Origin: Candidatus Omnitrophota bacterium
GTDB taxonomy: Bacteria > Omnitrophota > Omnitrophia > Omnitrophales > Aquincolibacteriaceae
DNA: 64,000 nt
Reading direction: 5' to 3'
NCBI GenBank assembly: GCA_023247055.1
Contig: JAHFHF010000007.1
Span: forward strand, 2,186-66,185
Below are positions 5,802 to 58,246 of this stretch, in pieces. The notes under the pieces were generated by a model. The model worked only from the letters and a program-made list of their open reading frames with translations. It was not told the DNA's origin and ran no database searches. Positions within the stretch are counted from its first letter, which is position 1. Every line of letters begins with the position of its first letter. The translations under genes and the position numbers were made by a program.

Positions 5802-5803
5802 GT

Positions 5804-9812: not shown

Positions 9813-9818
9813 ACTGTT

Positions 9819-10691: not shown

Positions 10692-10798
10692 AGGGTTCGG
10701 GATTCTATCTTTTTGCTTGTGGGGTGTCAATGGCGCCCTTTATACTTGCCTCTAAGGGACAGCATGTTTACCCGCCGCGTTCGCCATGACTGCTTCGG

Positions 10799-24300: not shown

Positions 24301-27300
24301 TTCACGGCTCACGCCAAAAAGCGTTTCAAAGTGCCCCCATTGGACGATTTTTTGCAGCATCTGGGGCCAATAGATTTGGGCCATGCGAAAAATACGGTCG
24401 GCATAGGCCTGATTGACTTCATGCCCTGCGTGAAACGTGTCTTGCATATAACGGAGGCGCGCGACCACGGAACCGCCAAAGTAAGAAAGGATCACTCTCC
24501 GGCGCTGGGCAGGCGTCGTCAGATCATCCGCAATCCTGCGCACAAACCGGCTGACAAAATAATCATGATACGCATCGCTTTCATGCCCAGTGACGTTAAG
24601 CTGCTCGGTCCGCAGCATGCCTCTCCATGCCCCCAGCGAAATATCTCCGTTGGCTTCGGCGCTTAGGCGCCGGTTCGCTTGCTGCTGTGCATAAGCATCC
24701 CGGTAAGTGTCATGCTGCTGAATTTCGGCCATGGGCATCAGGTCGATCAAGACCTGCCAAATCGTCTTTGGCGGCTGTTTACTCCCCCTCAGCCGCGGCA
24801 GCCACTTACGGATCTTTTCGGCCCGCTGCCGGCGCAAACGCCAGCGTTCCACGTATTGGTAAACAATATCCGGGTTCTGGCTTAAAGCTTCACTTAAAAG
24901 CGCGCCCCAAACCACCGATTCATCGACAGCCAAACCCTCCTCCAGTAAAACGCGGCCCGCTTTGACAAAACGCACGTAACGCTGTTTTTCGCGGCCCGCT
25001 TCCAAAAGCACCGCCCGGATCTCCTTCAAAATAGTTTTTTCAAAATGGTCGCCGGCGGAAAGTTTTTCTTCGATAAATTTAAAATCATTTTCAAAGTTCC
25101 GGAGCGCCTGCTTGCGCACCCGCTCCGTAATTCCCAAAATATAATTGTCCAGAATCTGGCGATAGTATTTTTGCTCGTTCTGTTCGGCCATGGTCTGAAA
25201 CCGTTCCAGAAAAAATCGCAAGACTACCCGGACGATGATGACAGACAAAACGAGGTCTATAAGATCCACGCGTACTTTCCAAAATTCAAAAACCGTGAAT
25301 TGTCGAATGACGCTTAAGAAATTATCGAAATTGAGCACATAACGAAAGGCTGCCAAGAAACCGGCAAACATCAGAAACAAAATAGGTATCCCAACCGTGG
25401 ACGCTAAATTCTCGACCGCTTCGGTGCTCATCAGCGTATTGCTTCGAAGCCAGCGGCGCTGCCAAGAGTGTGGCAGGATGGCGTTGGCATAGCCATGTTT
25501 GACAAAGTCCGGCACATGCACGTCGCCGCGCAGGTATTTTTTAATGAGCGTCTCGGCCATGTCCTGGCCCAAGCGCAGCATCCGCTCATGTTCTTTGACC
25601 GTGAATGCGTTTTTTTGCGCCGGCAGATCAAAAGACGGCACTCTCCAGGCTTCGGTCGTTAAATTTTGTTCCAAAATATGCGGCCGGACAATGCCATCGA
25701 TAAAAAAGCGCCGCGAGACCACCGGATCATAAAATTTCATCTGCACCAGCGATCCCTGCGGACCGGTCAAATGCTCCTTAGAATCCACAAAATCACGGCG
25801 GATCTGGCCCCGCAGATTGACCCGGTAATACTTGCGCCATTCCCCGGATTCTTCATAGGCGCGCAGCGTATTGGCAATTTGCCGCATCATGGCGGTTTCA
25901 AACTCCAAGAGTTCTTTTGGCGTTAATTGGGCCACATAATCATCATAACGATCCGCATTGAAATTGAGACGCGATTGTCCGGCTTTCAGAGAAGGGTCCG
26001 GCTTTGCGGTTTTTTGCCGCAGCAGGCGCTGAAACCACGGCGTATTTTTCATCCTAGTTTTATAGGACTGCCGCGCGCCATAGCGCAAGACCAGCGGGCT
26101 GATCGGCACGTCTGTTTCCGCGGCGGCAGGGCTGCGCATTTCAGATCGCGCAGTCGTTTCCGGCACAAACTGACCTTCGGAAACGAAAACGGGGTGCGGA
26201 AAATGGCTCCCGATATAACCGCCGCCCGGAATTGTCTCTGCGGTAATTTCGAGGGTTCCGTCTTTAACTTTGAAAATATTTCTGGTGCCGATGAGCGTTT
26301 CGACTGCCACCCGGCTGTTTTTTGAAAGATCAAAAACTCTTGGTGTTCTGGACACCTGGTCCTGGTAAAACCGGCGCGCGCTGGTAATCGGCTGCAGATA
26401 AATTTCAGAAGGCTTGTCCGGATTTTGAAAAAAAACATCCGGTCCTCCGCCATTCCCCATGATGACGACTCCGCCGTTTTCAAACATGGCCGGCTTAATG
26501 ACGGCCTTGCCGCCCGTGCGTTTGGAATCAAGCCGCCGCGTGCGCCGAAAGACACCGGCGGGGAACGCCGTAATGCCAAGGCCCGGAATCACAGAAGCAG
26601 AGGCCGGCGGCTCTGGCTCTGCTTTGTTCGCGGAGCGGAAATCCGCATGATAAAGCCCTCCGAGCGCATCGATTCCGTCCGGATGGCTGATCTGAAAACG
26701 ACCGTCCGATAGCGCTTCGAAACGTATCTTTTGGAGAATAACCGGCTGGGGCGTCCATAAATCCATAACGGCCAGCGGTGCCCGCAAACCTTCCCATTTT
26801 TCGCCGGCTGTCATATGAAAGAAAAAAATGAAACGCGGATTGCTGGTAAAACGCCTAATCATATAATCCGTGCCTCCATTTTCAATGAAAAGCCCGCTGG
26901 GGAAACGCGCTGTCTCAAAAACCCCGCGCCCGAATATAATTTCTTTTTTATTTCCGGAAATTTGTACTGCTCCGGAAATTTGCACGGCGTCAGCGCCGAA
27001 TTCCGGCACAGGCGCCCGAAAATCACTCCAGTTCCTGCCTTTCACGTGCACCGCCACAGGCTGGAATAAAGCGGCCGCGCGATAATCCACATACCATTCG
27101 CCTTCCAAATTGCCGGGATAGAATTGATTGCCCAGCCGGGCAAGAATTCTGCCGGAGGGCAGGCGGATGACGACCTGGCGTGTCTGGTCACCAGGCGCCA
27201 GCGGCGGCTCTTCGCCTTTAAAAGCGGCGCCATAGTGTGCCAGCATCTTCCGGAGTTTGGCTACGGTGGCTGGGTCAACCTCGGATTCTTGCAGCAAGGT

Positions 27301-30300
27301 GTCGGCGCTTATCTGCGTCAGATCATAAGCGGTCTTTATACGGAGTTTCCTTCTAGCGGCAGAAAAACCCAAACTTATGAGGTGGTATCGCCCGATCAAA
27401 AGATCCATATCCAAATTCCGCAGAAACACCTCGACGGCCGATTCATTCTTCAGCGCCAAACGCAGTTCGGCCAATTTGTTTCGAACTTCCTCGAGACTTA
27501 TAAGGCCAAACCCACGAATGGTAAGCAGCTCATCGGCAGATTTTTGTGTCAGTTCACCCAGCGTCGTAATGCCAAAATGGTGCGTCATTTTTCGTGCGCG
27601 GACACTCAAATCTAGCGTTGAAACAGGCTGATCAAGCAGTTCTGAATTTTTAAAATTCCGGCCTTGATGTTGCGCTTCGACGATTTCGACGCGCAAGCCC
27701 AGATGGTTTTCATTCCCGCTTACAGCGTGCGGGATTGACAGGCTGGGCAGCCATTTTTGTGAGTTAAAAAAACTGTCCAGTAATTGGATTTTTTCTGGAG
27801 ACGACAGACTGAAGTTTGTATTTTCGCGCGAAAGAATGGCGGCGAGACGCTCGGCCTCGGGCGGTATCTGCTCCAAATCAAAACCGGCGGCCAGCCACTC
27901 GGGCCAGGACTGCCGGCTGTCTGCCGGCCTGTCGCGAATCATGGCCTGGATGCGGCTTTCTCTGAGCATATGACCGGCGAGTTTGCGCGCATGGATGGCT
28001 TGGCCAGCCATCAGATGTTTAAAATAACCCGGCGTAAGCGCCGCCAGCATTAGAAACGCCAGCTTGCGGGCTAACGCCGAATTAAATTCCTTAGACAGAG
28101 TTTCAAGCAAAACGGCCTGCGCTTCTTTGCGCAAATTTTCATAGGGCAGGATTTTTTCACGCATCTGGCGGCTCAAAAGCGGCAAGGCACCGGCTTCCTC
28201 TTCGAGAGTCAGCGGGTTTTCATCTTCCTGCAGAAGGCCCAGGCGTTTGAGAAAATTCTTAATCATGATGAAGTCCCAATCCTCATACTCGCCCTCAACA
28301 TCCTGAACCCCATCGGCTGCATATTGCGGATTCAGATACCACTGGCCTTGCAAATTACCGGCGTTATAGCCCGTGCCGAGCCGCCCCAGCACTTGCCTGT
28401 GATGGCTGTATTTTGATACGACGCTAACTTGGGCGGGTTGAAACCCTTGATAAATCCAGGGTTCCGGCCGGCCTGCTTTCCTGCTGCCGCCGTCAATCCG
28501 TACTTCAAAAGACTCGAAATCAAACCGTGCTTTTTGAGTCTTTTTCCACTCCTTGATAAAATCGTGCAAAAGTGCGTCTCGAGATAAAGACGCCTCAATG
28601 TACCTGCCAAGACCATACATGGCCCATCCCGCAGCCTGGCGCGTCTGGCTCAGTTGATCCCGCGCAGCCCGGTCCGTCAACTGACGGCTGTCGGTCATCC
28701 GCACCAAACCGTCGATTTGTTTTTCGCGCGCCAACTCAGCCATGAGTGTTTTCCGAGTTATTTTCGAGGGGTCATCCACAAATTGAGCGGCAAGCCGCGG
28801 TGTAACGGCAAAATAAATCCTCTGAATAACTTCCCAAGTATCCGCAAACTTCGAATCCTGCAAGATTTTCAAAAGCGGCGCGTGCACGCGCTCCCAGGCA
28901 GACTCGGCCCAAAATTCTTGATCCATGGCCCGGTCGAAAAAAGTATCCCTGACAAAATCCCCAAACATAGGTTGATCCATAAAAACGGGCGTATCGGGCA
29001 TTTGACTCAAATGCGAATGCGTCACCAGCCCAACCCCGCCGGTGCCCGTCACTTCAAAACGGTAATCCGGCCCTAAAATCTGGCTGACTTTAAAAAGATC
29101 AACGCGCAATTTTTCCAATTGGGCGCGTGTCTTGGCATCTTCGGGTTCTTCGCCGGCCGGCCGGACCTCCGGTTGATTGCCGGCCGCTTCAAAGGCGCTG
29201 TCCCAATGCCATTGGCCGATCAAATTATCCGGCCGGTACCCGGTACCCAGCACAGCCACCTTCACCTCGGCGCCCTTGGGCTTTTTGGCCATAATCGCAA
29301 CTTCAAGCGAATTTGACTTTTCTATCGGCGTAATCTGAATTCTCAAAGACGGATCAAAGCTATTGAGTTGGTCCCGGGCATTGCCGTCGCCCACAAAATT
29401 ATGAAAATCCAAAATCAGCCCGTCTTTGAGATTGGAACTGTCATCAAACGCCTGAAGGACTCCATGCTTGGCCAAAAGCCCGGCAATACGGGAAGTCTTG
29501 TAATCCCACATCCAGCGTTTCTCAGCTAAATCGTTTCGCTTATGGGCCCAGGCTTTGCCATCCATCCCTGCGTTGGCAGTCAAGTTTGTTTTAATTTCTT
29601 TTTCAAGGGCTTGATAATAACTTTCTTCGACAAGCCGCGCCCGTACATCGCGGCCGGCCTTCAAAGACGGTTCTGACTCGGCAAACAGAATGCGAAAAAT
29701 GTTTTCCATCCAGTCTTTTTTATCTGGATGTTTATCTTTCGAAAGTTTTCCATCCAGACCAAATAATTCGTGGATTCCTAAAACCACTTTTTGAATCGCC
29801 GCCTCCCTCGACGCTGATTGTTCCGAAGTCATAGCCACGGCTTCGTCAAATTGTGTTAGGACGGCATCGCGCAACTTTTCGGCATCTTCTTCAGGCGTAA
29901 GGCTGTTGGGCCCAGGAGGAAGACCAAAATCGTTTCTAAGAAAAATGACCAGGAGTTCTTGGATAAATGCTTCATATTTCTTGTTCTGTGATTTATCTTG
30001 CGCCGCCGGACTTGGAATAAATTGCAGACTCAGTTTGGCCGCGGCTTTCAAAAGTTGCGGCGCCTGGCCGGTTTCGGGCACAGCCGGCGGTAATTTGTCG
30101 GAGCTGCGGTGCTTGAGGAGGAAATTTAAAAAATGCGGGTAAGCCATAAAAAAGCCGTCATTGCGAGACACCTGCCGCTTTTTGACGGGTGTCGAAGCAA
30201 TCTCGGACGCTGATATGACTTCGTTCCCTGCGCCTCCTCGCAATGACAAAATAGCCGCGGCAGAAGGCAGCGCGGCGCTTTCGATAAAAAGATAAAACAG

Positions 30301-33300
30301 ATTGGTTTGGACCGGGTCCAAAGCTTCCAGGGCGCTTAAAATTTCAGGGGCCTCTAATTTTTCACGAAAATAACGCAGCCCGGCCAGCAAAGCGGCGGCG
30401 GGCTCCTTGGGATAAAGCGCATCCGCATGCAGTGAAACCAGAAGCTGCAGCAGAGCCTGTTGTTTTGGCGTGGAACGGGCTTTTTTCAGCAAATACGGAT
30501 CAACCCAAAAGGTTTTTCCTTTCAGGCTCACCCCCGATAAAAGAGGCTCGGGGCTGATGCGGAATTGAAAGCCGGCGACCGCGAATTTTTCAAGCAGGCT
30601 GCCATCCGTGATCAGCTTGGCGGATAGCGGACGGCCCAGGTTTTCGTTCTGCTCCGGCTCATTTTGAGACGGCCTCGTTTTAGGACGGCCCCGGTGTTTG
30701 GCTTGGGCAGGTTCAGCAGCTTCCTGGCCGAGATATTCGCGAAATTGGCGCAAAACAGCTTCGACATCGCGCTCGCGATGAGTCTGGAAATATTCGAGTT
30801 TCTGGATTAAAGGCGTAAGATATTTGTCTTCCGGCTGCCGGGTTAAAATTTCGCGGGCTTTTTGATGCAGGCTCTGAATCAGTTCATCCGAAGGTTCTTG
30901 GCGCAATAGCGCCAAAAATTCTCTCTTGAGACGGAGCAAAGCCTGATCCGCGGGTGTTTTTTGCTTTGGCCGCAAGACTCTGTCGGCCAACGGAATTTTC
31001 GTCTCCGACCAGGTCTTCAGAACATCGGAAACACGAACTCTCGGGCCGGTCATTTCCGCAGCCGGTGCCACAGGTTTCCGGCGCGCAAGCTGGTTCGTGG
31101 CCCGGAAATCCCGCTGGATTTCAAGCCCGTCGGGATCAAGTTTTTTCATATCTTGCAGCGAAAAGACCTTATGCTTTTTCTTGCGCGCCAAAAGAAAAGT
31201 CGCGTTTTCTACCATCTGCCGGGTCAAAGCATCCAGTTCGGGAATTTCCCCTAGCGAAACTTTGTCATTTAAAATTTCGAAATCAAATGTTTCACTGAGA
31301 AATTTCTTGGCCTTGTCCGTAAAAACGCCGTTATGGTCCCAAAGCAAAAGCAAGCCGCCTTCCGTCACCGATTGGGCAGCCTGAACCAAGGCCCAGTTTT
31401 TCATGCTCACGCCATGCTTGTTTCGGATTCTTCCGGGCGGTTTGGCAATTTCAGAGGACGAAACAAAGTCAAAATGATTTTGCGGCAGCGCATCCTGATA
31501 CAAATCGTAATCACTTTGGCCGGCTGGCTGTTGCGGAAAATGCTGCTCAAGCTGCCAGGCCCGGCCCAAACCGCGGGCCTGAGCGGAACTGTCGACTTCA
31601 AAGTAGCTGAAATTGCGGACGGGAATCTTTTGGCGTGCGAAAAGCGCTTCCATCTGCGCCAAAACACGCAGATCCACCGAAGGGCCGGAAGCTAAAAAGG
31701 CCCAGCGCGGCGCCGGCGCGCCCTGCGCAGTCCGGTTTAAATCGATCGTCCCCTTTTCGTGCAAATGTAAAAGATGGCCATAAAGCGCTTCGGTCGCGGG
31801 TGTTGCTGCCACATCGTTAATCGCGGAAGCGTAAAGCGCCATGCCCTGGTCCCACAAAGCCTGGGCTTGGTCATTTTTGCCTTCATACAACCGGCTGTAA
31901 ACTTGCGCAAGCCAATGACGCACTTCCTGAGCAATGGTTTTACGTTTGGCGCGGCGCTTTTCGCGATCCTCAAGCTGTTTGATATTGCGGCGCATGTGGT
32001 CCATGCGGAGTTTGCCGCGGATAATCTGATCAAACAGCGATTCTTTGTGTTTTAAAATATCTAAAATGTCATCATCGACCGTATCGGCCACGACAAACGC
32101 ATACACCCGCACTTCTTTATCCTGGCCAATGCGGTAGACGCGGCCGATGGCCTGGTCCAGCTTGGCATTGGTGTAGGGCAGGTCCGTCAGTAAAACATGG
32201 TTGGCCTTGAGCGTATGCCCTTCGCCGCTCAGATCAATCGTGCTGAGAAAAACTTTTTGATCGAGGTCCTTGTTAAACCGGGCAATCACTCCTTCGCGAA
32301 GTTTGGGATCTTTATGCGTCTTACTGTCCAGATAAGCGACGGCCTCCGCCCCCATTTCTTTGGCCAGCATGTCTTTCAGGCGCTGAACCACCTTGCGGTA
32401 ACGGCTAAAAATCACAGCCCTTTCTCCGGAAGCGGCAATGGCCTTTATTTTTTCAATTACCGCGCGGTACTTGGCCGGCGAATCATGCCGCACCGGTTCC
32501 GAAGCGCGCAACAGTTCCAGCACAGGCCCACGCAAAAGCTCAAGACTTTCATAATATTCACGTTCATCGCGGCCTGATTTGGATACTAACAAGGACTCAT
32601 CCATTGAGGCCCTGACCCGCTCAAGCAACTCTTCATGGGTCCGGTCCGCGTCAGGCATCAACGGTTTGAGGAGACGCAGATCGATCAACGTTTTGACTTT
32701 TCGCAGCAGTGCTTCAAACTTTTTAGTCTTGGCGGTTCGGAGATCTTTTTCAGAGACCGCCAAAAGCTCCAGATCAATCAGAATTTGTTTCTGCTTTTCA
32801 AAATGCGCAAACGTCTCCATCTGCCTTTGATTGCCGAGCGCGTATTGATGATCTTCTTCTTCCAAAACAGCCTTCTGGGCTGGGTCGATTGTCACAGGAA
32901 TTATTTCAAGCGGGTGTTTTTTGGGAAGGTATCCCATGACTTGCGTAATGGTGCGGCGCAGAAAATATTTCTGATTGAGTTCAATATTGAGCTGCGCCAG
33001 ATGCAGCGGATCTTCGGTCACTTCCGCGCTAAAGCTGTCAAAATCCGGAAAGCGGGCGGGGTCTGCGGCATTCAACGCCACAAACAAATCGCCCACGCCA
33101 TTGACCACCGTCGTGCCCGAAAGATAAATCGCCGCCGCCTTATCTTTTTTAAGCCGGATAAACTGCTTGGATCTTTGGGTCTCGGGATTGCGCAGCCAGT
33201 GGATTTCATCGCCGATGATAAAATCCGGCGCCCAGGTATTGAGGGCATCCACCAAGGCTCCGCCGGTCTTGGCCGCGCCCAGGGCCTGGTAGCTCATGAG

Positions 33301-36300
33301 AATAAAACGCACACCTTCGTTTTGGACCTGTTTTAATTTTGCGAGGCGGCCGCTGCTGGGTCCGTCAATCACAGCCACTTTTTGATCTTGCCCGAGCCAC
33401 TTCGTAATTTCATTCTGCCAATTGGCCAAAAGATGATTCGGCGCCATGATCAAAACTTGTTTGGCGCCCGCATCCTGCGCTGCGATCAGCGCCTGAATCG
33501 TTTTACCCACGCCCATATCGTCGGCCAGAATGACACGGCCCGCATTTTCATGCCTGGCGAAATAAACTCCGGCGATCTGATGCAGCATCAATTCCGACGG
33601 ACTGATCGGGCCGCCGTTTCCGTTGCCATTGGTGTAATGCACATACTGCTGATAATTTTTCTGCTGCAGCGCCGCATAATAATTTTTAATCTGCTGATAA
33701 ATGGCCTGTAACTCTGCCGCCGCACCGGGGGGAGCCGTCTTAAACCAGGCTGCCGCTATTTGAAGGGCCTTTTGTGCTGTGGTTTTTTCAGGATCTTTGG
33801 GCAGCTTGAGCGCCGCCTCCAGCAGGGCATTGTAAATGCGCGTGATGATTTGGCGTTTGATCACTTCCCGGATCTCCTGCTGCACTTCGCTTGAAAATGA
33901 AGCTGCGGCAGGAGTATGCCAATATTGGCTAAGGGCCTTTTGCATTTTTTCGCCCATCAGTGTTTCGTGGCTAAAGGGCTGGATGTGATTATTGCTTTCG
34001 TAATCGAGAAACTTTTCGCTGATTAGGGCCAGCAGCGATTTCACCGGAAAATCCGGGTGCCGTTTCGCAAAAAGATAAAAGAGCGCGGCCTGGCCCTGAT
34101 CGGTATTGAAAAGATGCATCCAGGAATCCATGTCCATCTCTTCGGCGATTTGATTAAAAGACTGCCGCTGGCCGGCATTGATATGTTTCTCTAAATCGAG
34201 GCGCTGAGCGGCTTCTTCCTGGCCTTTGTAGGCAATTTTGTTTTTACTGAGTAAAAATTCGAGCGTCGAAACCGCAGAACCCTGCTTCTGACGCAGTTCG
34301 TCGTAATAACGATAAAGCGTATCAAGCCCGTAAGGCTTGGCCGCTTGGCTTAGCCGCAAGAGCGGCGTTTGCCTGAAAATCCGCTCCGCCTCGGCGCGGT
34401 CCAGCCGCATCCACTGATCGAGTGTCAATCCGGCGGATTGAAGTAAAAGCTGTACCAAAAAGCGGATCTGTGAAGGACTGCGCTTAGCCCAATCCACTTT
34501 TTGCGGATCCGTCAGCCAGGGGTCTGCGGCCCCTGCGGCCTCTTGGTGGCGCATCTCAGAGCGCGCAAATTTCGGAGTTAGAAGTTTGAAGTTGGAGGTT
34601 GGAAGATTCGAGCGGTCGGAAAATTCGGGATGAAATCTATTTTCTTTTTTACTTCCAACTTCCAACGTCCAACTTCCAACTTTTTGGCGCATCTCAGAGC
34701 GCTGCAGGGGCCGGGCCCCTTTTGCTTTTCTCTTGGGGGCGGGCTTGAAAATGATTTCTAATTCCCATCGCTGCAGATCAGGCACACCGGATAAAACGGC
34801 CAGCCGTTCCTGCGCACTCGCCCGGGCGTATTCTTCCTTGAGTAAAAATTCAGCCAGCTTGAGCGCATTCTCACGCGAAATGGTTGGCCGCACTTTATGG
34901 GTCTTGGTTGTCTTCCCTGTAAACCACCAGAAGACTGTCCAGACATTCACGCCGACAGCATCCACGATGGGTCTATAAGAAACAGGCGATTTGCCTCGGC
35001 TGGGATATTTGGCTGCCGCCACACGAGCGGCATTTTGCAGAAAATGTTTCTTAAACTGACGCACCTGTTTGCGCCGCGCCTGGGTCCCCGCACGATCATC
35101 CAGATGACCGCGAATAAACCATTTCCCGGGAACTTTGATTAAAGTCTGACGCTGTGTTTCCGAAAGAACGACTTCGTCATTGCGAGGCTCCCGCTGCTTT
35201 TTGGCGGGCGGCGAAGCAATCTTCAGCCCGGAATTTGCCGCAGTCTTTGCGGCGCCTTGTAAGGCATTTCCCCTTTGGGGCGGCGCGCGGTCTTTGCTAG
35301 CCGTTTTAGGCGATGCCGTTTTTTTCTTTTTCCCCGCCTCATAAGGAAAAAACACTTCAAGCTGTGCCGGCGTTAAATCAGGATTGCCGGCCATCCGCGC
35401 CAAAAGCTTATGACTTGAATCGTGCGGATAAGTACTCTTCAGTAAAAATTCAGAGGCCAACAAGGCATTTTCCCTGGAAATGATCCGTCGCTTGATCCAG
35501 TGCGTGATCATGCCCGCATGCCCGCGCCCTCGCGTTTTTACCAGATGCGGCGAGACATAGTCTGCCAGATTTTGGAGTATGACTTTATTTGTCCTTTTTT
35601 GCAGCAAAAGCATTGTTTCCAAATTATCAAAAAAGCTATCTCGAAGTTTGGCCGTGTCCGAAAATCCTCGGACTTGCCGCAATGTTTTCCACACTTCAAG
35701 CCCTTCAAGCGCCGGCGCTACAGAGCGCATCTCAGACCTAGCCCGAGCATCATCCGAAGCTGGCCTTCGGCGTATTTCGCTTCGCATGGGGTTCACGATT
35801 CGGGCAGTATCGAACACTTTATTTTTTAAATTAAAATTAAATAAATATTGATTTAAAATAAATACTCGGATATTATGTTTTATCCAAATAAAAATACGGG
35901 CGATCGCATGAAGATAGGGACTCTTCGAGATGAAAGACAAGACACGCCGGTATGAAACCGGTAAAATGCTGATTGATTTATCAAAATATTTTGCGACGGC
36001 AATTGCCGCCGGTACTATTGCCAGCGGCCGATTTGATTGGGGAGTCGTCATTACCGGGCTAGTGCTGGCATTTCTAAGCTGGGCTATCGGATTTGTAACC
36101 ATCCCGGAGGATAAGGAGAGCAAATGAGTAATTTTGAAGTCTTTGCCATTGGCTTCGTTGTTTTCGTCTCGATGGTCGGATTGATTGTGGCGATTAATCA
36201 CCGCTTGAGTGAGCGGCAGCGTCCCCATCCGCCCCACGGCACTTAAGCTGGGGATGCGACGAATTTCTGAGCGCTGCGCTTGAAGAATTTGGCCGTAACG

Positions 36301-39300
36301 CATCAGAGCCGCCCGCATCACAGGCTCAGCCGTTGTACGGATAAGCTCGAGATACTCCAGACGCGCTTGAAAAAGCCGCTCCAAAATTTCAATTTTGCTT
36401 TCCTCAGACTGCCGGCCAAATGAACTCCAAAGATTATCCCAATCCCGAAGCCGGTGCTCCACTTGAGCGGGGGCTTGATGAATAACCTCACTGCCGCCCT
36501 CGCCCCATAAAATCATTTCAGGGCGCGAGAGCTCCGAATGTAAAATGATTTCAAAAAACTCTTTTGACAGCACCTCCAATTTCGCAGACAGAAACCGTGC
36601 TTGGCCATCCCGCCGGATATCCTCGAGAAAAAGACCAGCACCTTCAATTTCATGATCCAAACCGCCAAGAAACCACGCCGCGCCCCGCAGGCTTGCCTGC
36701 TGTAAAGTTTCGTCGTCGTTTTCTTTAAAAAAAACATCGGCTCCGAGCGCCCAAAGCCGGCCCCCGCTATTGGACGTATTCAGTTCTGAAAGTACTGTCA
36801 TCGGATCTTGAACCAATTCCGGAAACATCCCGCTCCAAGGCGCGGGCAGATCGAACAGTTGTGAAAATTTTTGATAAAAATTCAACGCCTCCGGCCGCGT
36901 ATGAGGCCAAAATCTTTCCGCCCAGATTTTAGCCCAGCTGCTGAAACCATCCAGATACACGCCGGCCAAATTAACCGGCTCTGAACCCGGCAGCCATTCT
37001 TGTTTCATGCCCGGCCGCGGATCTCGAATAAAAACGCCCGTGGTCTTTAACGCCTCGACTTCATTCGTTTGGCGATAGCGGGCATATACTTCTATCGCCA
37101 ACGCGTTGAAAGGATAAGTCATGAAATCAGAAACGTATTGACCATAGGCCGCATTCAATCGTTCTGCCTGATGATCCCAAACTTCAGAACCTGTGCGATT
37201 GATAAATTCCAAAGCAGAATCAGAAAAAAGCGAGAACTGCCGGAAGTCCTTGGCGTGCGTCAAATCAAGCTGTCTCATTTTGGCCGTCGCTGCTGCGATC
37301 GGCGGTGTATGGAATAAAATTCCAACAAACCAACTTAAAATCTCGTTTATAATGGTCGTTATAGCGTTGTTTATTCTCGGTATTATCTTAGCCGACAAAC
37401 TAGACAACAAAGGACGGTAACTCCATGTTTGGTCTTGTAACCATCTTTCTCCTATTTTCCACGGTCGCTCTATGGATTGCATTGGAGAGGTATTTTTTAA
37501 ATCGCCGAAAGCATTAAGCCTGCTCGGCTGAATTTGCCTCAATTCTGACCGAGCCTCTCCCCCAATCTGATCCCATGTTTCAGTCACAGTAATCAAACGC
37601 ATAAAAAAATCTTCGAGTGCTTGGGGAGTGCGTCCAAAACTTGCCGGCGTGAAAATAAGCTTTTTCGGAGCCGTCGCTTCATGCCAGAGTTGTTGAAGTG
37701 TCATAGCGCTATCATCTGATTTTTTTTCTGCGGCTTGGATGAGATAACTGGCAAGCGGATACTGGGTAAGCAAAAAGTCGTACGCATGGTGAGAATCCCA
37801 CATCCCATCATCCAAATGCGCAATGCGGTTCTTAAATTCTTCAGGTGTCATCTTGTGGCCAAACATTAAAAACGAGTAAAGCCGGATAAACATCTCAAAA
37901 TTCGCAAAAGGCCCATAGTTTTCAGGTTCTGGAATCGCCCGTTCATCAAGCTCCCATTTCAAAGTTTCCATAATACGTTCAGGTGCGGTCTTCTTAGCAA
38001 GTTCCGCATAAAGCATCTGGCTCAAACTCAACGCATGCGCCATTTGTTTTACAAACTTCGGGCTCTGAAAATTCCATGTACGTTCTCCATCTGCAAGTTT
38101 CCACACTGCGGGATTCTGCCCCCGAACCTCCGATCGCCCAACAGCATCCCGATTCTTTGGTTCAACACCCTTGGCTCTTGTCTCAAGCAGCTGTGCTTTG
38201 AGGCTGCCTTGACCAGCCATGGTTCTTAGGCTAGTCTTCGAAAAGGGAGAAATATTCCATGCAAAAAGTTGCCGTAACACTACTACCCAAGCAAGCTGAG
38301 ATTTTGATTGAACAGCTTGTTCAAAATCTGGATTTTGAAGCCAAATACCGTTTGGTCCAGAAACTACAGCGTGAAATGCGCCGCGCCCGCTGGGAACCCC
38401 TGGTTCTGAAAATGCGGCGGCGTTTTGCCTCAAAACCCCTTTCTTCCCGTCAAATCCGGCGGCTCTGTGAACAGGTCCGCCAAGAACGGTTTGAGCGTGC
38501 GGGTCGTCGTTGACACCAACGTTTTTATTGCCGCCCTTCTGCAAGGGAATACTCCCCGAAAAGTCTACGATTTCCCCCCCCCTCACTTCCGAGCGATAAG
38601 ATTCCGCGTTTCCAAGAAGAGATTTGAGTGTTTTGAATTTCCACGGGCCAAGACGCGCCTGATTGATCGTGAGCGTTGCTTCCACATCCAGCCATTCGGG
38701 CGGAATATGCATCAAGAAGCCGGCGTCGTCGCCTTTGAAAAGAACCTGCTGTTTCATTTCAAGCCAGGGAATGTCTTTGAGCGATTGATAATGACTGCGG
38801 ACTTCTTCAGGCAGTTTTGCACCCAGGCCCAGCGAAGGATCAAGCGCCCAGGTTTTCTTTTCGTCTATCGAATCCGATTCGATCAAATGTGTGCTAGGCA
38901 CACGAAAGATCAGAACAATATCATTTTTTTCAGGCCCTCGTTTTTCAACGCTTTCCTGATCCCGGTAAAAAACAGTCCTCCAGGGCAATTGGTAAAGGCC
39001 GTACCAGGCAATCAAATCGATGGTTTTAAGGCCTTTGCTCGAGTCATGTATAACGTGATAGACAAGGCTGTCTCCGGTCTCTGCTGCTTTTTTGTAATTC
39101 GATCCTTCAGCATGGACCTCATAGGCTGTGGTTTTACCACCGCTGCGCACGATCGAAGCCGCGGCCGGAATCGAGCGATATAAATGCAAAGAAGCTTCGG
39201 GAAGCGTGCGTTCCAAGCCGCCGGGCTGCCAATCATGGGTTTTGATGACTCTCAGCTTATCGCCCGTGTTAAATCCATTGGGCAGCTCGTACAGCTCGAG

Positions 39301-42201
39301 CGCATCATCGGCCTGGATCCTCTCAAAAACCCAGTCTCTCACGCTATCGAGAGTCCCGATAAAAGGGCCTTCTCTTTGCAACGACGTCTGCGGATTCAAA
39401 CGTTCCAGCAGAGTTTCGAGCAGGCGGACACGCATCCGCAAATAATCAGCCAGCGCCGGATTGTCCTCTTCAAAAAGATACGCATAATCCGCAAGCTCAT
39501 GCGTTTCTGCGATATAATCATGCACAAACTCGTCTTCATCTTCAGCTACTTCCAAACGCTGCTCGTCGTCTAAAAGAACCCGGTCGAATTTTTGAACGGC
39601 GGGAACTATTTTCCGGATTCTCTGAATCTGCTGTTCGTAGGTCAGCGCTTCCCATTCCTCACCCGTAACGCCGCCTATCTTCAGAAGACGCTCACTTAAT
39701 TTTGCAAACTTGTTTCGATTGTTCAAAACACGTTGAATCATACCCAGCTTATCCGCAAGTTCTCGATCCTGACGCTCGCTTGCGGGCAGCCGGATTAAAT
39801 AAACAGTTCCCATAATCGCCAACCCGCCAAACAAGGCTGACATAAGCCATAAAATGGGTTGACCTGCAATGGCTGCACCGGCCAAACCTGCAGTCATCAC
39901 CCAGGCCAGCACCGTGCCGGCATAAAACTCTCTTATTTTTTTCCGGTGCTCTCTGGCCTTTGCACTTAGTGCTTCTTCACTGGCATTCTGGCCGCGCATC
40001 TCGGATCGAGGCTCCGCCGAGTTCACAGAAGTGCCGGACCTCCGCGTCCGGCGCATCTCAGAACGCAAAGACATGCCCGTCACAACGGCGGCTTCATGCG
40101 CCGCTGCGCTGGATTTGTTGACAGCAGGTTTCCCGATAACGATCGCGTCAAACCCGTTTTCAGGAACGCGGCCGTAAAGACGCGTAGATTCCCAAAAGCT
40201 GCTCCAATAGCGCTCCGGCCTCTTCACTTGTTCACGCGCAATCAGTTCATCCAGCACAGTTCTGTCGTCCAGCCGGGTTAAAGGGCTCATCTCCGGCATG
40301 CGTTTGAACATTTTCTGCAAATCATCGCTCGCCATCGCCAGCACGTGATAGCTGTGATAGGGCTTGAGGATTTGCCGCAGTAAAGCCTGGCCTCTTCCAC
40401 GGATGGGCTCTGCTGTATCCGGAAATCGCGGATAGAACGCCGTGATCCGGATCAGCTTGGCCTCATCATAAACACGCGCGCTGATTTTCCGGTCTTGATT
40501 GAGTTGATGGCCGGACCTATCGAAAACATCCGCCAAAACTTCTGTGTACAGAAATTTATTTTCACTTTCAGACGACCCTGCCGCATAAACCGGAGTTCTT
40601 TGAATGCGGACCGTAAAACCTTCCAGCCCCGGCATGTCCTGCACTGTTTCGATCTGGGGTAAACTGCCTTTCGCCTCCATTCGCATTTCAGACATGGCGA
40701 GGGCCCGCGAACGCGCAGACGGTTCTTTAAGTTTTAGGGCTGCTTCGCGCGCCGAGCGCACAAGCGTCATGCCCGGCGGCAAGGTTTGCATGACTTCACC
40801 GAGAGTCCTGATTTCATGCGCGATTGATAAATCGCCCGCCTGTTGGAGTTCTACGACACTGATGGGGCGCGATAGACGCGGCAGCTTTCCAGCCTCGAAC
40901 GGATTGATGCCGCCGGCCATGATCTGGCGGTAATAGTCTTTGTGTTTCTTCTCAATTCTCGAGATGACCGGCGAAATGACCGCGTAACTGACTCCGGCTT
41001 CATTCAGCATTTCGCGGATACGGCCGGCATGAAAACCGCCGTAGACCAGCACCGCTGTTTTTTCATCCGCAGATTCTAAAAAATCCGCGAGAGCCAGTTT
41101 CACTTGGTCGTCCCGTTTAAGGGCTGTCTCATAAAACTCAAAAGCGCTGCGGATACTTTTTTCCCAGCGCCTAGAAAGTACCACGGTCCGGCGGCCATGG
41201 CGCGCCACAAATTCCGCGAGGGCCTGCATTCGCAGTCCGGCCAGTGTGGTTTTAATGTGCGCGTATTCTTCGGCCGTCATCTCGATCTTGTTCAGGCGCT
41301 TGAGCATCTGCAGGTCGTTGTAGAACTTGAAAAGATTGCGGCTGTCGTCTGTTTTCAAAAAATGAACCGCAAGGTCTTTTTCCAGCTGATCCATTTCTTG
41401 CCACAGGCTGCTTGCATTGTGCTTTTTAACTTCTTCAATCGCCGCGGCCTGTTTACTGTCGAGCGCGCGCAAAACCCCGGCCAACCCCGGGTAGCTGACG
41501 GCAAAAGCCGGCGCGCCCATGACGGGAATGGCTAGACGCGCGGTCTCGCGCGCATAAAACGCAAAGTCGGTACGCTGGTTTTCAAAATCTTGTTTGAGGC
41601 GCAGGAACTGCTGCAGGGGTTTGGGCAAAAGCTGCGGCACAAGGGTCTTGAGTTCTTTTTCGGCGCTGCGAAGTTCAGCGTCAATCATGGCCTGGACGGA
41701 TGCGGCTTGGCGGTACCAGGCCGCGCTTTCAAAATGTTCTCGGATATTGTCGGCGCCGATCAGATGGAAGTCTTTTTGACGGTTGATGTGCGCATATTCG
41801 GCCGCGCCGATTTTCAGCTTATCGAGCAGAAAATACGAAACACGCCGTTTGACTTGGGCATCTTGAATCGTTCCGAAAAGTTTATCGGTAGGCACAGGCC
41901 CTTCATAGCCTTCTTCAAAAACCGTGCGCACGCCGTGGTTTTCCACCAAATGCGTAATGAGAGCGGCAATGTTTTCCTGGGCCTCGAGCGAGTCGTGGGC
42001 ATCCTGGATGAAGAGGACGGTCTTGGCAGAAAGGCCGCGCTGAAAAGTTTCAACGGAGGCTAGGCGGGGCGGAATGGAAAACGGCGTTTCGATTTTAACC
42101 GGTGCTGCGCCCGCAGAGGCAGGCACACTGAGACACACACTTAAAAACAATGCTATAAGTTTAAAGAAAGCACGCAAAAAACGGCTGTTCGTTTTAAACA
42201 C
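18337..42201 (-). CDS. giant multidomain membrane-anchored protein (7954 aa) with an SNF2-family ATPase core and RNAP alpha-CTD-like HhH domains
   Basis: Uninterrupted 23,865-nt ORF. GTG start at 42201..42199 with AAAGGA ten nt upstream. N-terminal signal anchor, at least six internal TM segments, SNF2 motifs (GVGKT, DEIH, RVYRIGQ), the recurring RSEMR pentapeptide, and internal tandem repeats. TAA stop at 18337. Confidence 0.85.
   Translation of the reverse strand: [7954 protein letters not shown]
27240..27640 (-). other. two helix-hairpin-helix segments resembling the RNA polymerase alpha C-terminal domain, within the giant protein
   Basis: [51 protein letters not shown] follows the alpha-CTD pattern (LxLSVRxxNxL ... 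G.L...S..ELL...FG.KSL.E). A second, weaker copy ([34 protein letters not shown]) follows. Confidence 0.5.
30157..30250. repeat. family A palindromic element, copy 3, in-frame inside the giant ORF
   Basis: GTCATTGCGAGACACC...GTCGAAGCAATCTCGGACGC...CCTCGCAATGACAAAA. Translated in the giant frame as [35 protein letters not shown]. Confidence 0.75.
32000..33570 (-). other. SNF2-family helicase/ATPase core (DEXDc plus HELICc) within the giant protein
   Basis: Motif I [11 protein letters not shown] at about 33498..33521. Motif [11 protein letters not shown] at about 33188..33217. Helicase C-terminal motif [17 protein letters not shown] at about 32100..32160. Confidence 0.85.
34549..34702. repeat. 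in-frame inverted-repeat element inside the giant ORF, bounded by 16-nt direct repeats GCGCATCTCAGAGCGC
   Basis: DR at 34549..34564 and 34687..34702. Between them GTTAGAAGTTTGAAGTTGGAGGTTGGAAG ... CTTCCAACTTCCAACGTCCAACTTCCAAC (inverted arms of TTGGAAG 7-mers). One DR plus insert is 138 nt, which is 46 codons. Confidence 0.7.
35848..35876 (+). promoter_or_regulatory. consensus-like sigma70 promoter on the plus strand inside an AT-rich island of the giant ORF
   Basis: TTGATT (35848..35853), 17 nt, TATTAT (35871..35876). Local GC is about 20 percent over about 90 nt, against about 57 percent in the surroundings. Confidence 0.4.
40790..42080 (-). other. N-terminal extracytoplasmic domain of the giant protein, possibly TraB/GumN (TIKI)-like
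   Basis: After the signal anchor: [21 protein letters not shown]...[11 protein letters not shown]...[11 protein letters not shown]. This loosely resembles the GxxH ... E ... VVVGxxH arrangement of the TraB/PrgY/GumN family. Weak, pattern-level only. Confidence 0.25.
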
Positions 42202-47503: not shown

Positions 47504-47623
47504 GTGGCATACCGCTTGCACTGATACGTATGCATTTTTGTACCTGCCGCAATTTAAGGTCTGCTTTTGATACCTCGGGGCAAGGCAAAATTTTGGAACG
47601 GTTTATCCGCTTTTAATCTTTAA

Positions 47624-49309
<1,686 letters not shown>

Positions 49310-49338
49310 GATCACTCAAACATTTAAATTTTTAATTC

Positions 49339-55108: not shown

Positions 55109-55438
55109 TTACCACTTTTTGAAAATAAAAAATACAGCGCCGATCATCAAGGCAAATCCCACGAAATAATTCCATTTCAGAGACTCCTTTAAATACACCA
55201 CGGAAAAAACGCAAAAAACTGCGAGCGTGATGACTTCCTGCATGACTTTAAGCTGGGCTGTCGTGAAGTGGTAAGAGCCGATGCGGTTGGCAGGGACCTG
55301 AAAACAGTATTCGGCAAAAGCAATCAGCCAGCTGATTAAAATGACTTTCCAAAGCGCCGATTCACGGAAGCGGAGATGGCCGTACCAGGCGATCGTCATA
55401 AAAACATTTGACAAGGTCAGCAGCAGGACGGTTGTCAC
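55109..55438 (-). CDS. small DMT-superfamily membrane protein (DUF486-like)
   Basis: 109 aa, three to four TM helices. Pattern AWYGHLRF...W resembles the DMT/DUF486 family. Confidence 0.55.
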   Translation of the reverse strand: MTTVLLLTLSNVFMTIAWYGHLRFRESALWKVILISWLIAFAEYCFQVPANRIGSYHFTTAQLKVMQEVITLAVFCVFSVVYLKESLKWNYFVGFALMIGAVFFIFKKW

Positions 55439-55603: not shown

Positions 55604-57172
55604 ATGAATAAAAAAGTTTACCTCTTGTCAGCCGTTCTGGCTTTGTCTGCAGGGCTCTGTTTTTATCTGCGCCTTTCCTTCGGCGGTCAGACTATCCGGC
55701 CCGAATTTGACCGCAAACTTTGGCGCATCGAGATCGGCATGAATGTCTCCGGCAAAGGCGAGCGCGCCAAAGTTCGCCTGACCCTGCCTAAAGATACCGA
55801 ACGCCAGACGGTCTATAATGAAAACTTTGAAAACGACGCCATGTCGTTTACGATCACCGAAAACGAGCGCACCAAAAACCGTATCGGCGTCTGGCAGATC
55901 GAAATCCTCGACGGCACTAAGAACCTCAAGTACACGCTTTCGGCCCAGCTTAAAAGCCAGACCTTTATCATTCCCCCGGATCTGACCCTGTCTCCTTTTC
56001 CAAGGGACAACGCGCCCCCCGAATTCCGTGTCTGGCTGGATCCGTCAGCCTATATTCAATCGGACAACAAAACCATCCGGCGCTACTTGAAAAAGGCCCT
56101 TGGCCGCGAGAAAAATGTGGACCGCGTCATGCACAGGCTCTTTGATTTCGTACGCGGCCAGGTCAATTATAAGACCACCAAGAAAAGCAAGGATGCTATT
56201 GAAACCCTAAAATCTTTAACAGCCGCTTGCGGCGGTCAAGCGCGGGCCTTAGCGGCTTTAAGCCGGGCCGCGGGCATTCCCTCGCGCGTAGTCGGAGGGT
56301 TGATTCTGGAGCCGGGTGTTAAGCAAATCACCCATGTCTGGGTTGAAAATTACATCGACGGCAAGTGGATCCCGTTTGATACGGTCAACAACCATTTCGC
56401 TTTTATTCCTGAGCACTATCTCGAACTTTATTGGGGCGATGTGGCTTTACTGCGCCACGTGGGGCTTTCCAAAATCGACTATTACTTCAACGTGGGTTAT
56501 GAAACCATGCCGCCGGTGGACCAGCCTTGGTCGCTTTATGTCATTCCGGTGCACTTTCACAATCTGACGAAGACCACCTTGCTGATCCCTATCGGCGCCC
56601 TGCTCGTGGCTATTTCACGCCTGATCATCGGCATCCCCACGTTCGGAACCTTCGGCCCCGTGCTGCTGGCCATTGCCTTTCAGGAAGTCTCGCTTGGGCC
56701 CGGCTTACTTTTTGTGTTCATAGTACTCAGCCTCAACTTGATGGTGCGCCGCCTGCTGGATTCTTTAAAAATCCTGATTATTCCCAAATTGGCAATCTTG
56801 GTCACCATGGTCGTCATTATTCTCATCAGCATTATGATGATCAGCGTCCAACTCGGCGAGAGGCGCATGCTCTATGTCTCAGTTTTTCCCATCATCATCA
56901 TGACCTGGATGACCGAGCGTTTCGCCGTGCTCCAAATCGAAGACGGCACCTTGGCCGCCCTCAAATCGTCTTTAGGCACAGTTTTTGTAGCCTGCTTGAC
57001 GTATTACACCATGGAACTTTCATTCCTGAAGGTTTACCTTTTTGCTTTTCCGGAATTGCTCCTGCTCAATATTGCGCTGCTGCTTCTACTCGGGCGCTAT
57101 ACCGGCATCCGCATCACCGAATTGCAGCGCTTCCGCGATTTACACAAAATCCACACCGCCAAGAAGCCATGA
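55604..57172 (+). CDS. transglutaminase-like domain protein fused to a C-terminal seven-TM module
   Basis: Signal anchor, then a transglutaminase core with Cys (TAACGGQARALAALSRAAGIPSRVV), His (THVWVENYIDGKW) and Asp (IPFD). At least seven hydrophobic helices occupy the last about 220 aa. Stop overlaps the next gene start (ATGA). Confidence 0.75.
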   Translation: MNKKVYLLSAVLALSAGLCFYLRLSFGGQTIRPEFDRKLWRIEIGMNVSGKGERAKVRLTLPKDTERQTVYNENFENDAMSFTITENERTKNRIGVWQIEILDGTKNLKYTLSAQLKSQTFIIPPDLTLSPFPRDNAPPEFRVWLDPSAYIQSDNKTIRRYLKKALGREKNVDRVMHRLFDFVRGQVNYKTTKKSKDAIETLKSLTAACGGQARALAALSRAAGIPSRVVGGLILEPGVKQITHVWVENYIDGKWIPFDTVNNHFAFIPEHYLELYWGDVALLRHVGLSKIDYYFNVGYETMPPVDQPWSLYVIPVHFHNLTKTTLLIPIGALLVAISRLIIGIPTFGTFGPVLLAIAFQEVSLGPGLLFVFIVLSLNLMVRRLLDSLKILIIPKLAILVTMVVIILISIMMISVQLGERRMLYVSVFPIIIMTWMTERFAVLQIEDGTLAALKSSLGTVFVACLTYYTMELSFLKVYLFAFPELLLLNIALLLLLGRYTGIRITELQRFRDLHKIHTAKKP

Positions 57173-58113
57173 GTTTTTTTCATCCTTTCCGCGACAACGG
57201 CATCCTCGGCATGAACCGCAGGAATGCCGATTACATCTTGAATTACAACCGCCGAAAATTTTATCCGCTGGTCGACGACAAACTCAAAACCAAGCAGCTG
57301 CTTGAAGAAAATGGCCTGCCCACGCCGGTGCTCTATTTTGAATTCCGCTATGAATTTGAATTGCGTTATATCCGCGAAATCAGACATCTAAAAAAATTCG
57401 CTATCAAACCCGCGCGCGGCGCTGAAGGCCGCGGCATTCTGGTCATCGCCGATAAATCGGACAAGGGCTGGCTAACGACAAGCGGCGAACTTTTGACGGC
57501 CGATGATATCGAATACCACGTTTCAAATATTCTGGCAGGACTTTATTCCCTCTCCGGCGTCGACGACCATGCTTTTATCGAATATTTCGTGCAGAGCCAT
57601 CCGGTCTTTCAGCCGTTTACTAAAAAAGGCGTGCCGGACATCCGTGTCATTCTCTACCGCGGCATACCGGTCATGTCGATGCTGCGCCTGCCCACGATCC
57701 AATCCAAAGGCAAGGCGAATCTGCATCAGGGAGCGGTGGGGGCGGGTGTCGATATGCTCAAAGGCATTACACTCGGCGGCGTGCATAAAAACCAACTTGT
57801 TGAAAAACATCCGGACACGCAAGCTGCGATTGCCGGGCATCAGATTCCCTTTTGGAATTACATCTTGGAAACTGCGGCAAAAACGCATGAGATTTTCAAA
57901 CTCGGCTATTTTGGCATCGACTTTGTCATCGACCGCCAGCTTGGCCCGCTCATTCTCGAACTCAATGCCCGTCCCGGCTTGAGCATTCAACTCGCCAACC
58001 GCCATGGCCTGCTGCCCCGACTCGCTGCTGTGGATCAACACAAGAACGTCGAATCCCTGCCCTACACTGACCGCCTGCAAATCGCAAAAGATATCCTGCG
58101 CCACGACCGCTAG
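57169..58113 (+). CDS. alpha-L-glutamate ligase-like (RimK-related) ATP-grasp amidoligase
   Basis: 314 aa from ATG 57169 (MSFFHPFRDNGILGMNRRN...). ATP-grasp motifs: KPARGAEGRGI, FIEYFV, and ILELNARPGLSIQ (Mg/ATP-binding E-x-N). The ORF-track N-terminal extension from 56527 overlaps the previous gene in another frame. Confidence 0.75.
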   Translation: MSFFHPFRDNGILGMNRRNADYILNYNRRKFYPLVDDKLKTKQLLEENGLPTPVLYFEFRYEFELRYIREIRHLKKFAIKPARGAEGRGILVIADKSDKGWLTTSGELLTADDIEYHVSNILAGLYSLSGVDDHAFIEYFVQSHPVFQPFTKKGVPDIRVILYRGIPVMSMLRLPTIQSKGKANLHQGAVGAGVDMLKGITLGGVHKNQLVEKHPDTQAAIAGHQIPFWNYILETAAKTHEIFKLGYFGIDFVIDRQLGPLILELNARPGLSIQLANRHGLLPRLAAVDQHKNVESLPYTDRLQIAKDILRHDR

Positions 58114-58117: not shown

Positions 58118-58246
58118 AACTCGTGATGAGCGGTGATGAGTGATTGGTGACTGGTGATTAGTGGCTGATAAAAGGAGCCGCTACGCGGCATTAAATGTCA
58201 CGCAGTGACACATCCACCAATCACTAATCACCAGTCACTAATCACT
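58118..58246. repeat. intergenic cassette flanked by inverted arms of GTGATGA/TGATTAG tandem 7-mers, between convergent genes
   Basis: GTGATGAGCGGTGATGAGTGATTGGTGACTGGTGATTAGTG ... CACCAATCACTAATCACCAGTCACTAATCAC. Centre contains GTCACGCAGTGAC. Confidence 0.75.

Follow-up and report, generated by a model that had tools for sequence, protein, structure and literature searches.

The closest described relative of the gene pair considered here is the rloABC operon of Pseudomonas aeruginosa, in which rloA codes for a retropepsin-like protease that is secreted, rloB for a seven-transmembrane (7TM) protein whose transglutaminase domain is inactive and rloC for a cytoplasmic ATP-grasp enzyme, with operons of the same kind in Legionella, Aeromonas and Vibrio, including V. 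cholerae (Lormand et al., mBio 2025, PMC12239564). The rlo phenotypes of P. aeruginosa concern osmotic survival, biofilm formation and antibiotic tolerance, and rlo mutants show altered cell shape and altered sensitivity to beta-lactams and cell-wall antibiotics. A triple RloA protease mutant is lethal in hypo-osmotic medium, a defect suppressed by deletion of rloB or rloC; RloA cuts runs of at least eight glutamates in vitro, and its polyE-binding residues are required in vivo (PMC12239564). The biochemical activities of RloB and RloC are left undefined in the same study, which found 96% of RloB matches to be proteobacterial. A sequence-only reading of the DNA discussed below had called this kind of pairing essentially uncharacterised experimentally, a description that is outdated for the homologous rloABC, with its genetics and its RloA biochemistry, and that still holds for the biochemistry of RloB and RloC (PMC12239564). 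The present text concerns a two-gene module in a 64,000-nucleotide stretch of a Candidatus Omnitrophota genome (contig JAHFHF010000007.1, hereafter the window), which encodes a transglutaminase-7TM (TG-7TM) protein and an ATP-grasp ligase and which, judged by sequence, is homologous to P. aeruginosa RloB/RloC, with the transglutaminase triad intact and RloA absent.

Systems combining ATP-grasp, 7TM-inactive-transglutaminase and aspartyl-protease proteins were reportedly predicted by Iyer, Abhiman, Burroughs and Aravind in Mol Biosyst in 2009, and the Pfam families PF14397, PF14400 and PF14402 originate from that work. Going by the Pfam descriptions, both the families and the gene pairing are as in the window. 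The Pfam text, however, describes the fused transglutaminase as 'usually' 'inactive', whereas the window protein fits the active-type Transglut_core with its triad kept, and the protease gene of the predicted systems is absent from the window. The parts of the module are as follows.

55604..57172, plus strand: gene 1, an open reading frame (ORF) of 522 residues for the TG-7TM protein, an RloB-family homologue matching PF14400, PF01841 and PF14402
57169..58113, plus strand: gene 2, 314 residues, a predicted cytoplasmic ATP-grasp amidoligase of the RloC family (TIGR02291) matching PF14397
57169..57172, plus strand: ATGA start/stop overlap of gene 1 and gene 2, the sequence reading GCC-ATG-A-GT
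55613..55681, plus strand: N-terminal membrane anchor helix of gene 1, residues 4-26 (Kyte-Doolittle peak 1.76; AlphaFold2 helix at residues 3-26)
55700..56380, plus strand: ectodomain of gene 1, comprising an N-terminal beta-sandwich (residues 33-116) and a transglutaminase-like core (residues 168-259), from Pfam and matches to PDB entry 3ISR
56228..56230, plus strand: Cys209 codon TGC, predicted nucleophile, at least 90% conserved in 90 homologues; Glu/His in Legionella and Aeromonas RloB
56333..56335, plus strand: His244 codon CAT, invariant in the 90 homologues; Thr/Val in canonical RloB
56378..56380, plus strand: Asp259 codon GAT, at least 90% conserved in the 90 homologues; Asn in canonical RloB
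56528..57142, plus strand: 7TM_transglut membrane module of gene 1, residues 309-513 (Pfam E 1.4e-55; AlphaFold2 model of the 7TM region alone with a mean predicted local distance difference test score, pLDDT, of 90.1)

In gene 1, Transglut_i_TM (PF14400, its N-terminal part) covers residues 33-116 (E 6e-9), Transglut_core (PF01841) residues 168-259 (E 3.8e-19, 69.4 bits against a gathering threshold of 23) and 7TM_transglut (PF14402) residues 309-513 (188.9 bits against a threshold of 25), the last bearing out the C-terminal seven-helix module that had been recognised from the letters alone. The hydropathy profile gives the single N-terminal helix, about 295 hydrophilic residues and then a multi-helix block, a layout with which the AlphaFold2 model built from 90 homologues agrees (mean pLDDT 86.8). 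By the positive-inside rule, the basic N-terminus (MNKK) and the basic C-terminal tail point to a topology with the N-terminus inside, the ectodomain outside and the C-terminus inside. Within the 7TM module R339, the GxPTFGTFxP loop, R382/D386, E438/R439, E446 and P483-E484 are invariant, as are E506/R509/F510 in the C-terminal tail. The ectodomain matches 3ISR, a putative cysteine protease of Cytophaga hutchinsonii, both by profile (E 6.2e-14) and by superposition of the whole domain (Foldseek E 6.5e-16, template-modelling score normalised to the target 0.75, 279 columns), with weaker Foldseek matches to LapG, the pseudomurein isopeptidases PeiW/PeiP and the animal transglutaminases TG2/TG3. 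The 7TM module alone gave nothing significant in a Foldseek search of PDB folds (best E 1.5).

Cys209, His244 and Asp259 line up with the catalytic Cys, His and Asp of 3ISR. That these residues are intact had been stated from the sequence, and the claim withstands a direct reading of the codons, the alignment with 3ISR and comparison across homologues. All 79 of the TG-7TM ORFs, which come from 77 genome loci, have the complete triad. The loci belong to Omnitrophota, Planctomycetia, Nitrospirota, Thermodesulfobacteriota, Gamma-, Beta- and Zetaproteobacteria and Campylobacterota, and their proteins are only 33-37% identical to that of the window; retention at such divergence implies purifying selection on the catalytic residues. 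The ectodomain of gene 1 is accordingly of a type predicted to be catalytically competent. Compared with 3ISR, LapG and PeiW/PeiP, it has the same two-domain fold and the same positions for the catalytic residues, but those are soluble or periplasmic stand-alone enzymes of about 19% identity, with neither a 7TM fusion nor an ATP-grasp partner.

What the sequence-only reading missed is that, on the sequences at hand, the intact triad is the exception within its family, and that it is accompanied by absence of the RloA protease. Searched on its own against 1.84 billion cluster representatives, the 7TM region recovered 1673 family members at E <= 1e-3, 1004 of them at E <= 1e-10, and among the best 150 only 3 of the 122 full-length representatives carry Cys-His-Asp, the others being degenerate in many ways. 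In a midpoint-rooted neighbour-joining tree of the 7TM region, which is rough, without support values and suggestive only, the Cys-His-Asp forms make up two separate groups at one end, one of Omnitrophota and Planctomycetia and one of proteobacterial type, followed by His-only forms and then by fully degenerate forms. The window's ATP-grasp protein is, moreover, 46-48% identical to partners of dead-triad proteins as against 37-44% to those of the other triad-intact group. Tree and identities together suggest an ancestral triad that has stayed live in these groups, not a single derived clade. A further state was seen at the triad columns of about 12 cluster representatives (P0251, P0268, P0299, P0318, P0377, P0389, P0094 and others), where Cys is replaced by Ser or Ala, His is kept and Asp has become Cys; this may represent a relocated nucleophile or decay. 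P0251 (locus L083, 75-2179) has RloA upstream and no adjoining ATP-grasp gene on its short contig.

The state of the triad is inversely patterned with the presence of RloA. Neither tblastn nor a profile from four RloA sequences found a match to RloA (PF05618) within the 64-kb window, and the profile found none in the 77 triad-intact loci over about 6 kb to either side, the best stray match having E 0.077. An RloA gene lies directly upstream, by contrast, in six of seven triad-degenerate loci (L081-L086, with two copies in L086). An intact triad thus goes with absence of RloA from the locus and a dead triad usually with RloA, a clean pattern that agrees with the operons described in the literature for P. 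aeruginosa and V. cholerae.

Canonical operons were recovered from a plasmid of Legionella adelaidensis and a replicon of Aeromonas caviae, each in the order RloA (PF05618), RloB, RloC, and provide the direct comparison. Both core proteins, their order and their strand are common to the window module and rloABC: an RloC-type ATP-grasp gene follows the 7TM gene directly on its 3' side, in the window with the ATGA overlap; the 7TM motifs GxxTFGTFxP and FPELL and the tail motif GxYxGxRLxELxRF occur in both; and the predicted topology agrees, the ectodomain facing outwards and the ligase lying in the cytoplasm. Gene 1 is 32% identical to the RloB-type protein of Legionella and 26% to that of Aeromonas, and reaches 164.2 bits (residues 192-514) against a cut-off of 900 in the NCBIfam RloB model NF052267, making it a homologue, not an equivalog. 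Gene 2 is closer, at 48% identity to the Legionella and 46% to the Aeromonas RloC, and its 46-48% identity to ATP-grasps beside inactive RloB-type genes extends to three metagenomic loci. The differences lie in the triad columns, which read E/H, T/V and N in the Legionella and Aeromonas proteins and are intact in the window (C209/H244/D259), in RloA, which is found neither upstream nor elsewhere in the window, and in the host, which is here an omnitrophotan and not one of the Proteobacteria that dominate RloB matches (PMC12239564). Two annotations are odd: the RloA homologue of L. adelaidensis on plasmid 5 (L081 2934-3392; PF05618 E 2e-21) is annotated as a 'RimK/LysX family protein', and the 4.9-Mb A. 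caviae 'plasmid' pKAM479_3 (L082) is evidently a chromosome, its rlo-like operon being without listed features.

Gene 2 had been taken for an alpha-L-glutamate-ligase-like ATP-grasp enzyme, and profile hidden Markov models bear this out. ATPgrasp_ST (PF14397) matches over its full profile (1-278 of 278) at E 1e-81 and 274.6 bits against a threshold of 31.4, and TIGR02291 (rimK_rel_E_lig, alpha-L-glutamate ligase-like) matches residues 4-291 at E 3e-113 and 378 bits against a cut-off of 314.2, so that with 7TM_transglut in gene 1 both proteins fall into the families that had been proposed for them. The cut-offs of the RimK subfamily TIGR00768 (48.5 bits against 143.4, E 7e-13), of cyanophycin synthetase TIGR02068 (17.6 bits against 850) and of LysX were failed, and Ddl-type models scored negligibly (16.7 bits against 243). 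Nucleotide- and Mg-binding motifs of the ATP-grasp fold are present as IKPARG at residue 79 and GIDFVID...ELNARPG at residues 249-270; no PDB sequence matched gene 2 at E <= 0.01. RimK/RimB, a poly-alpha-L-glutamate ligase acting on ribosomal protein S6 with a retropepsin-like partner, resembles the module in its ATP-grasp fold, through the weak similarity to TIGR00768, and in coupling a ligase with a hydrolase that removes the product. It differs in that gene 2 falls under the RimK cut-off and has no match to the RimK N-domain, and in that gene 2 is partnered by a membrane protein where RimK has a cytosolic protease, and the envelope is presumed to be where the module acts. One metagenomic locus (L086 469-6495) carries in a row RimK with Rimk_N, a MATCAP-like carboxypeptidase, two RimB/RloA-like PF05618 genes, a dead-triad RloB and RloC, and so ties the Rim and Rlo systems together physically.

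The two genes of the window form a stand-alone unit, since the upstream neighbour is divergent and the downstream neighbour convergent. The ATGA coupling claimed in the sequence-only reading is present at the junction, where the ATG of gene 2 sits across the TGA of gene 1; the gene 2 frame is open from 56527, and the start at 57169 is the one backed by homologues and by a gene call made independently on the source contig. Linkage is general: in 75 of the 79 triad-intact cases the TG-7TM gene is followed directly, on its own strand, by an ATP-grasp gene of this family, and in the four exceptions the contig ends in or just after the TG-7TM gene (75 of 75 testable). Gene-2 starts, as placed in the related loci by a start-choice heuristic, fall between -17 and +49 nucleotides from the gene-1 stop, with the 4-bp overlap in at least 24 of 69. 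The outcome is therefore an ATP-grasp enzyme that falls outside the ordinary RimK and cyanophycin synthetase families and is linked to a TG-7TM partner at every testable locus. Chance would not give E-values of the size found for the two genes, nor a linkage conserved to this degree.

Beyond the pair itself the two triad-intact clades differ. No further conserved genes surround the pair in the Omnitrophota/Planctomycetia clade. In the other clade (Proteobacteria, Nitrospirota, Campylobacterota, Zetaproteobacteria) the pair is followed by a gene for a tetratricopeptide repeat (TPR) protein of about 635 residues with an N-terminal membrane anchor, and then by a gene for a protein of about 400 residues with a signal peptide and no Pfam match, which usually ends on an aromatic residue in an alternating pattern like that of outer-membrane protein (OMP) barrels; a gene for a BamD/YfiO-like TPR lipoprotein is frequently found upstream. 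The loci of this arrangement are the following.

L003, L021, L023, L025, L027, L028, L031-L036, L039-L052, L054-L056, L058, L066 and L069-L076: four-gene loci (TG-7TM, ATP-grasp, TPR, OMP-like), e.g. L021 5878-11600

To our knowledge this variant is undescribed, and the set of four to five genes looks like an envelope operon. It agrees with the window module in having a triad-intact TG-7TM gene directly followed by the ATP-grasp gene, without RloA, and differs in sequence (33-37% identity for the TG-7TM and 37-44% for the ATP-grasp protein) and in its two to three added envelope genes, for which there is no homologue in the 64-kb window. A membrane machine, a TPR scaffold and an outer-membrane protein are the layout of synthase-dependent polymer export systems, and by that analogy the four-gene context would be as expected for polymer export across a diderm envelope. 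The relatives in Gallionella and Zetaproteobacteria were also considered as the 'sfz' twisted-stalk cluster, which they are not, the sfz genes being BcsB-like, GT2 and GH10 and unrelated. Three loci of Sulfurimonadaceae (L043, L062 and L063, at about 1300-10700) contain tandem modules, with TG-7TM, ATP-grasp and TPR genes followed by a second triad-intact TG-7TM gene without an ATP-grasp gene of its own, a TPR gene and an OMP-like gene.

The reading we favour, to which we would give somewhat less than an even chance, is that of a self-contained RloB/RloC-type envelope module, in which the ligase product is handed to the 7TM partner and processed outside the cell membrane by the live triad. The gene 2 ligase would use ATP in the cytoplasm to make an amide-linked acidic product, likeliest an alpha-linked oligo- or polyglutamate, either free or carrier-bound. 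It would act at the cytoplasmic face of gene 1, whose 7TM module would take the product and move it across the cytoplasmic membrane, and the outward transglutaminase-like domain, through Cys209-His244-Asp259, would then trim or release it. In the gammaproteobacterial rloABC, where the transglutaminase domain of RloB is dead, the processing would for that reason have passed to RloA, a separate retropepsin that is secreted. The sequence data show the family assignments, the conserved triad, the strict linkage, the homology to RloB/RloC and the pattern of RloA absence. We infer the identity of the product from RimK-family homology and from the in vitro specificity of RloA, and likewise translocation by the 7TM module and hydrolysis by the transglutaminase domain. 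Suppression of RloA-mutant lethality by loss of rloB or rloC fits a RloB/RloC product that needs processing in the periplasm (PMC12239564).

Several points weigh against this reading. One of the two patterns by which the 79 ORFs were collected contained WxPFD, which biases the set towards the Asp, though not towards the Cys or His. The triad-degenerate sample is small (seven loci), the samples are phylogenetically non-independent, and L087, a triad-degenerate locus on a short contig, shows no RloA in the 338 nucleotides available upstream. An RloA-type protease could, further, be encoded outside the 64-kb window, P. aeruginosa having two RloA paralogues outside its operon. Transglutaminases normally act on the side chain of Gln and not on Glu or on peptide bonds; that the domain is a protease or isopeptidase is an assumption modelled on LapG, PeiW and other transglutaminase-like enzymes of bacteria. 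Translocation is a conjecture, the 7TM module being without a detectable structural relative among solved transporters. We know of no biochemical activity for any RloB or RloC protein, and it is homology, together with the specificity of RloA, that points to the product.

The nearest alternative keeps the synthesis and the hand-over and departs in the envelope chemistry. The live domain might be a transamidase or transpeptidase that links the ligase product covalently to some acceptor in the envelope, for instance an amine of peptidoglycan, a lipoprotein or a protein of the surface, giving an anchored anionic layer. The fold is common to transglutaminases and transglutaminase-like proteases, an amine can resolve the acyl-enzyme of Cys-His-Asp chemistry, the TPR and OMP-like genes of the four-gene clade hint at a surface destination, and rlo mutants are altered in cell shape and beta-lactam sensitivity (PMC12239564). 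Yet the inverse pattern involves RloA, a pure hydrolase, which suggests that hydrolysis is the missing function; among Transglut_core-like domains of bacteria, most of those characterised act as proteases or isopeptidases (LapG, PeiW/PeiP), and no acceptor has been identified, so that we regard attachment as unlikely. A still smaller chance is given to a role in which the ATP-grasp enzyme glutamylates a protein, as RimK does S6 (PMC12239564), perhaps the cytoplasmic tail or loops of gene 1 itself, with the TG-7TM protein serving as a sensor or regulator that binds or cleaves an envelope ligand. The invariant E506/R509/F510 of the cytoplasmic tail, the dissimilarity of the 7TM module to any known transporter and the lack of a conserved substrate peptide gene near the module would suit such a role; the tail, however, ends in ...HTAKKP and not in Glu, RloA is secreted and needs its polyE-binding residues in vivo, which places the substrate outside the cytoplasm, and the TPR and OMP-like genes of the sister clade suggest export.

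Remodelling of peptidoglycan, in which the ATP-grasp enzyme would add amino acids to a wall precursor and the transglutaminase-like domain would act as an endopeptidase or isopeptidase on stem peptides or cross-links, seems to us quite improbable. The transglutaminase-like cell-wall isopeptidases PeiW/PeiP are among the structural matches, many ATP-grasp enzymes (Ddl, MurT-like partners) serve wall synthesis, and the shape defects and cell-wall antibiotic sensitivity of rlo mutants (PMC12239564) would be accounted for. Against this stand the 16.7 bits of gene 2 in Ddl-type models, its nearest characterised relatives, which are alpha-L-glutamate ligases, and the preference of RloA for runs of at least eight glutamates, which are not found in peptidoglycan. 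That the adjacency is incidental, gene 2 being an ordinary RimK- or cyanophycin-type enzyme beside an unrelated membrane protease, could appeal to nothing more than the sub-threshold matches to RimK, LysX and cyanophycin synthetase models; with TIGR02291 passed where the RimK and cyanophycin cut-offs were failed, and with adjacency at 75 of 75 testable loci in at least six phyla, down to a start/stop overlap, it is already refuted by linkage and can be given practically no weight.

Upstream of the module lies a divergent gene for a small DMT_6/DUF486 membrane protein (55109..55438, minus strand) and downstream a convergent pseudouridine synthase gene. The nearest named homologues are without exception proteins of Omnitrophota metagenome-assembled genomes, and the identical gene pair is present on a 74-kb ENA metagenome contig. 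A horizontal-transfer island is unsupported, GC near the module (0.51-0.52) matching the rest of the window. The sequence-only reading had proposed looking nearby for a small substrate peptide gene; the ORFs of the spacers (165 nucleotides upstream and 138 downstream) are short and unconvincing as peptide genes, and no ORF of 18-69 residues within 600 nucleotides of the module is conserved across loci, save for antisense shadows in close relatives. The downstream spacer holds one further feature.

58133..58245, no strand assigned: heptamer-periodic inverted repeat with arms at 58133-58167 and 58211-58245, in the 138 nucleotides that separate gene 2 from the convergent pseudouridine synthase gene

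This cassette, pointed out in the sequence-only reading as flanking the module, is real and lies where it had been placed, but it does not belong to the conserved components of the module. Its arms of 35 nucleotides are 83% complementary and built of GTGATTR-type heptamers with a periodicity of 7 nucleotides, and the RNA is predicted to fold with a free energy of -72.4 kcal/mol (z = -9.0). Among 82 loci it occurs solely in contigs of the same organism (L001, L002), and it was not found after the ATP-grasp gene in the relatives L004 and L006. A module component or a repeated mobile element is ruled out by this absence from relatives, by the single copy in the window and by the lack of a match in Rfam; given its location between convergent genes, the simplest reading is that it is probably a transcript-end hairpin. 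Elsewhere in the window a single uninterrupted ORF of 7954 residues (23.9 kb; 18337..42201, minus strand) takes up more than one third of the whole, giant genes being a reported trait of Omnitrophota, and opposite-strand ORFs of about 550-570 residues share one stretch (47603..49315, minus strand, and 47651..49309, plus strand), the plus-strand one being called as a 552-residue gene on the source contig (L001 2048-3706) and having no Pfam match.

The homologous rloABC system was already named and its genetics described (PMC12239564); what is new is the live-triad, RloA-less two-gene form in Omnitrophota and the comparative link between the state of the triad and RloA. This inverse pattern speaks for periplasmic processing of the ligase product as a built-in and indispensable step, and for the 'inactive' domain of RloB as a remnant of the enzyme that first did the processing. 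The window module offers a handle on RloB/RloC biochemistry as a minimal system of two proteins, a ligase and its membrane partner, free of redundant proteases. More speculatively, and with a probability that we consider low, the triad-intact pair may be the ancestral minimal form of a widespread machine for the non-ribosomal synthesis, export and processing of a poly-amino acid, in which one membrane protein both carries a polyglutamate-like chain made by the ATP-grasp enzyme through the inner membrane and uses its Cys-His-Asp domain to cut the chain or to attach it covalently to the envelope, the gammaproteobacterial Rlo system being a derived form that has outsourced catalysis to RloA. The four-gene relatives with their TPR and OMP-like genes suggest that in other lineages the product can be exported past the outer membrane. 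If the triad-intact pair is such a machine, Omnitrophota would have a way, not recognised before, of making an anionic polymer of the surface or the periplasm, and so would, together with the TPR and OMP-like proteins, iron- and sulfur-oxidising Proteobacteria.

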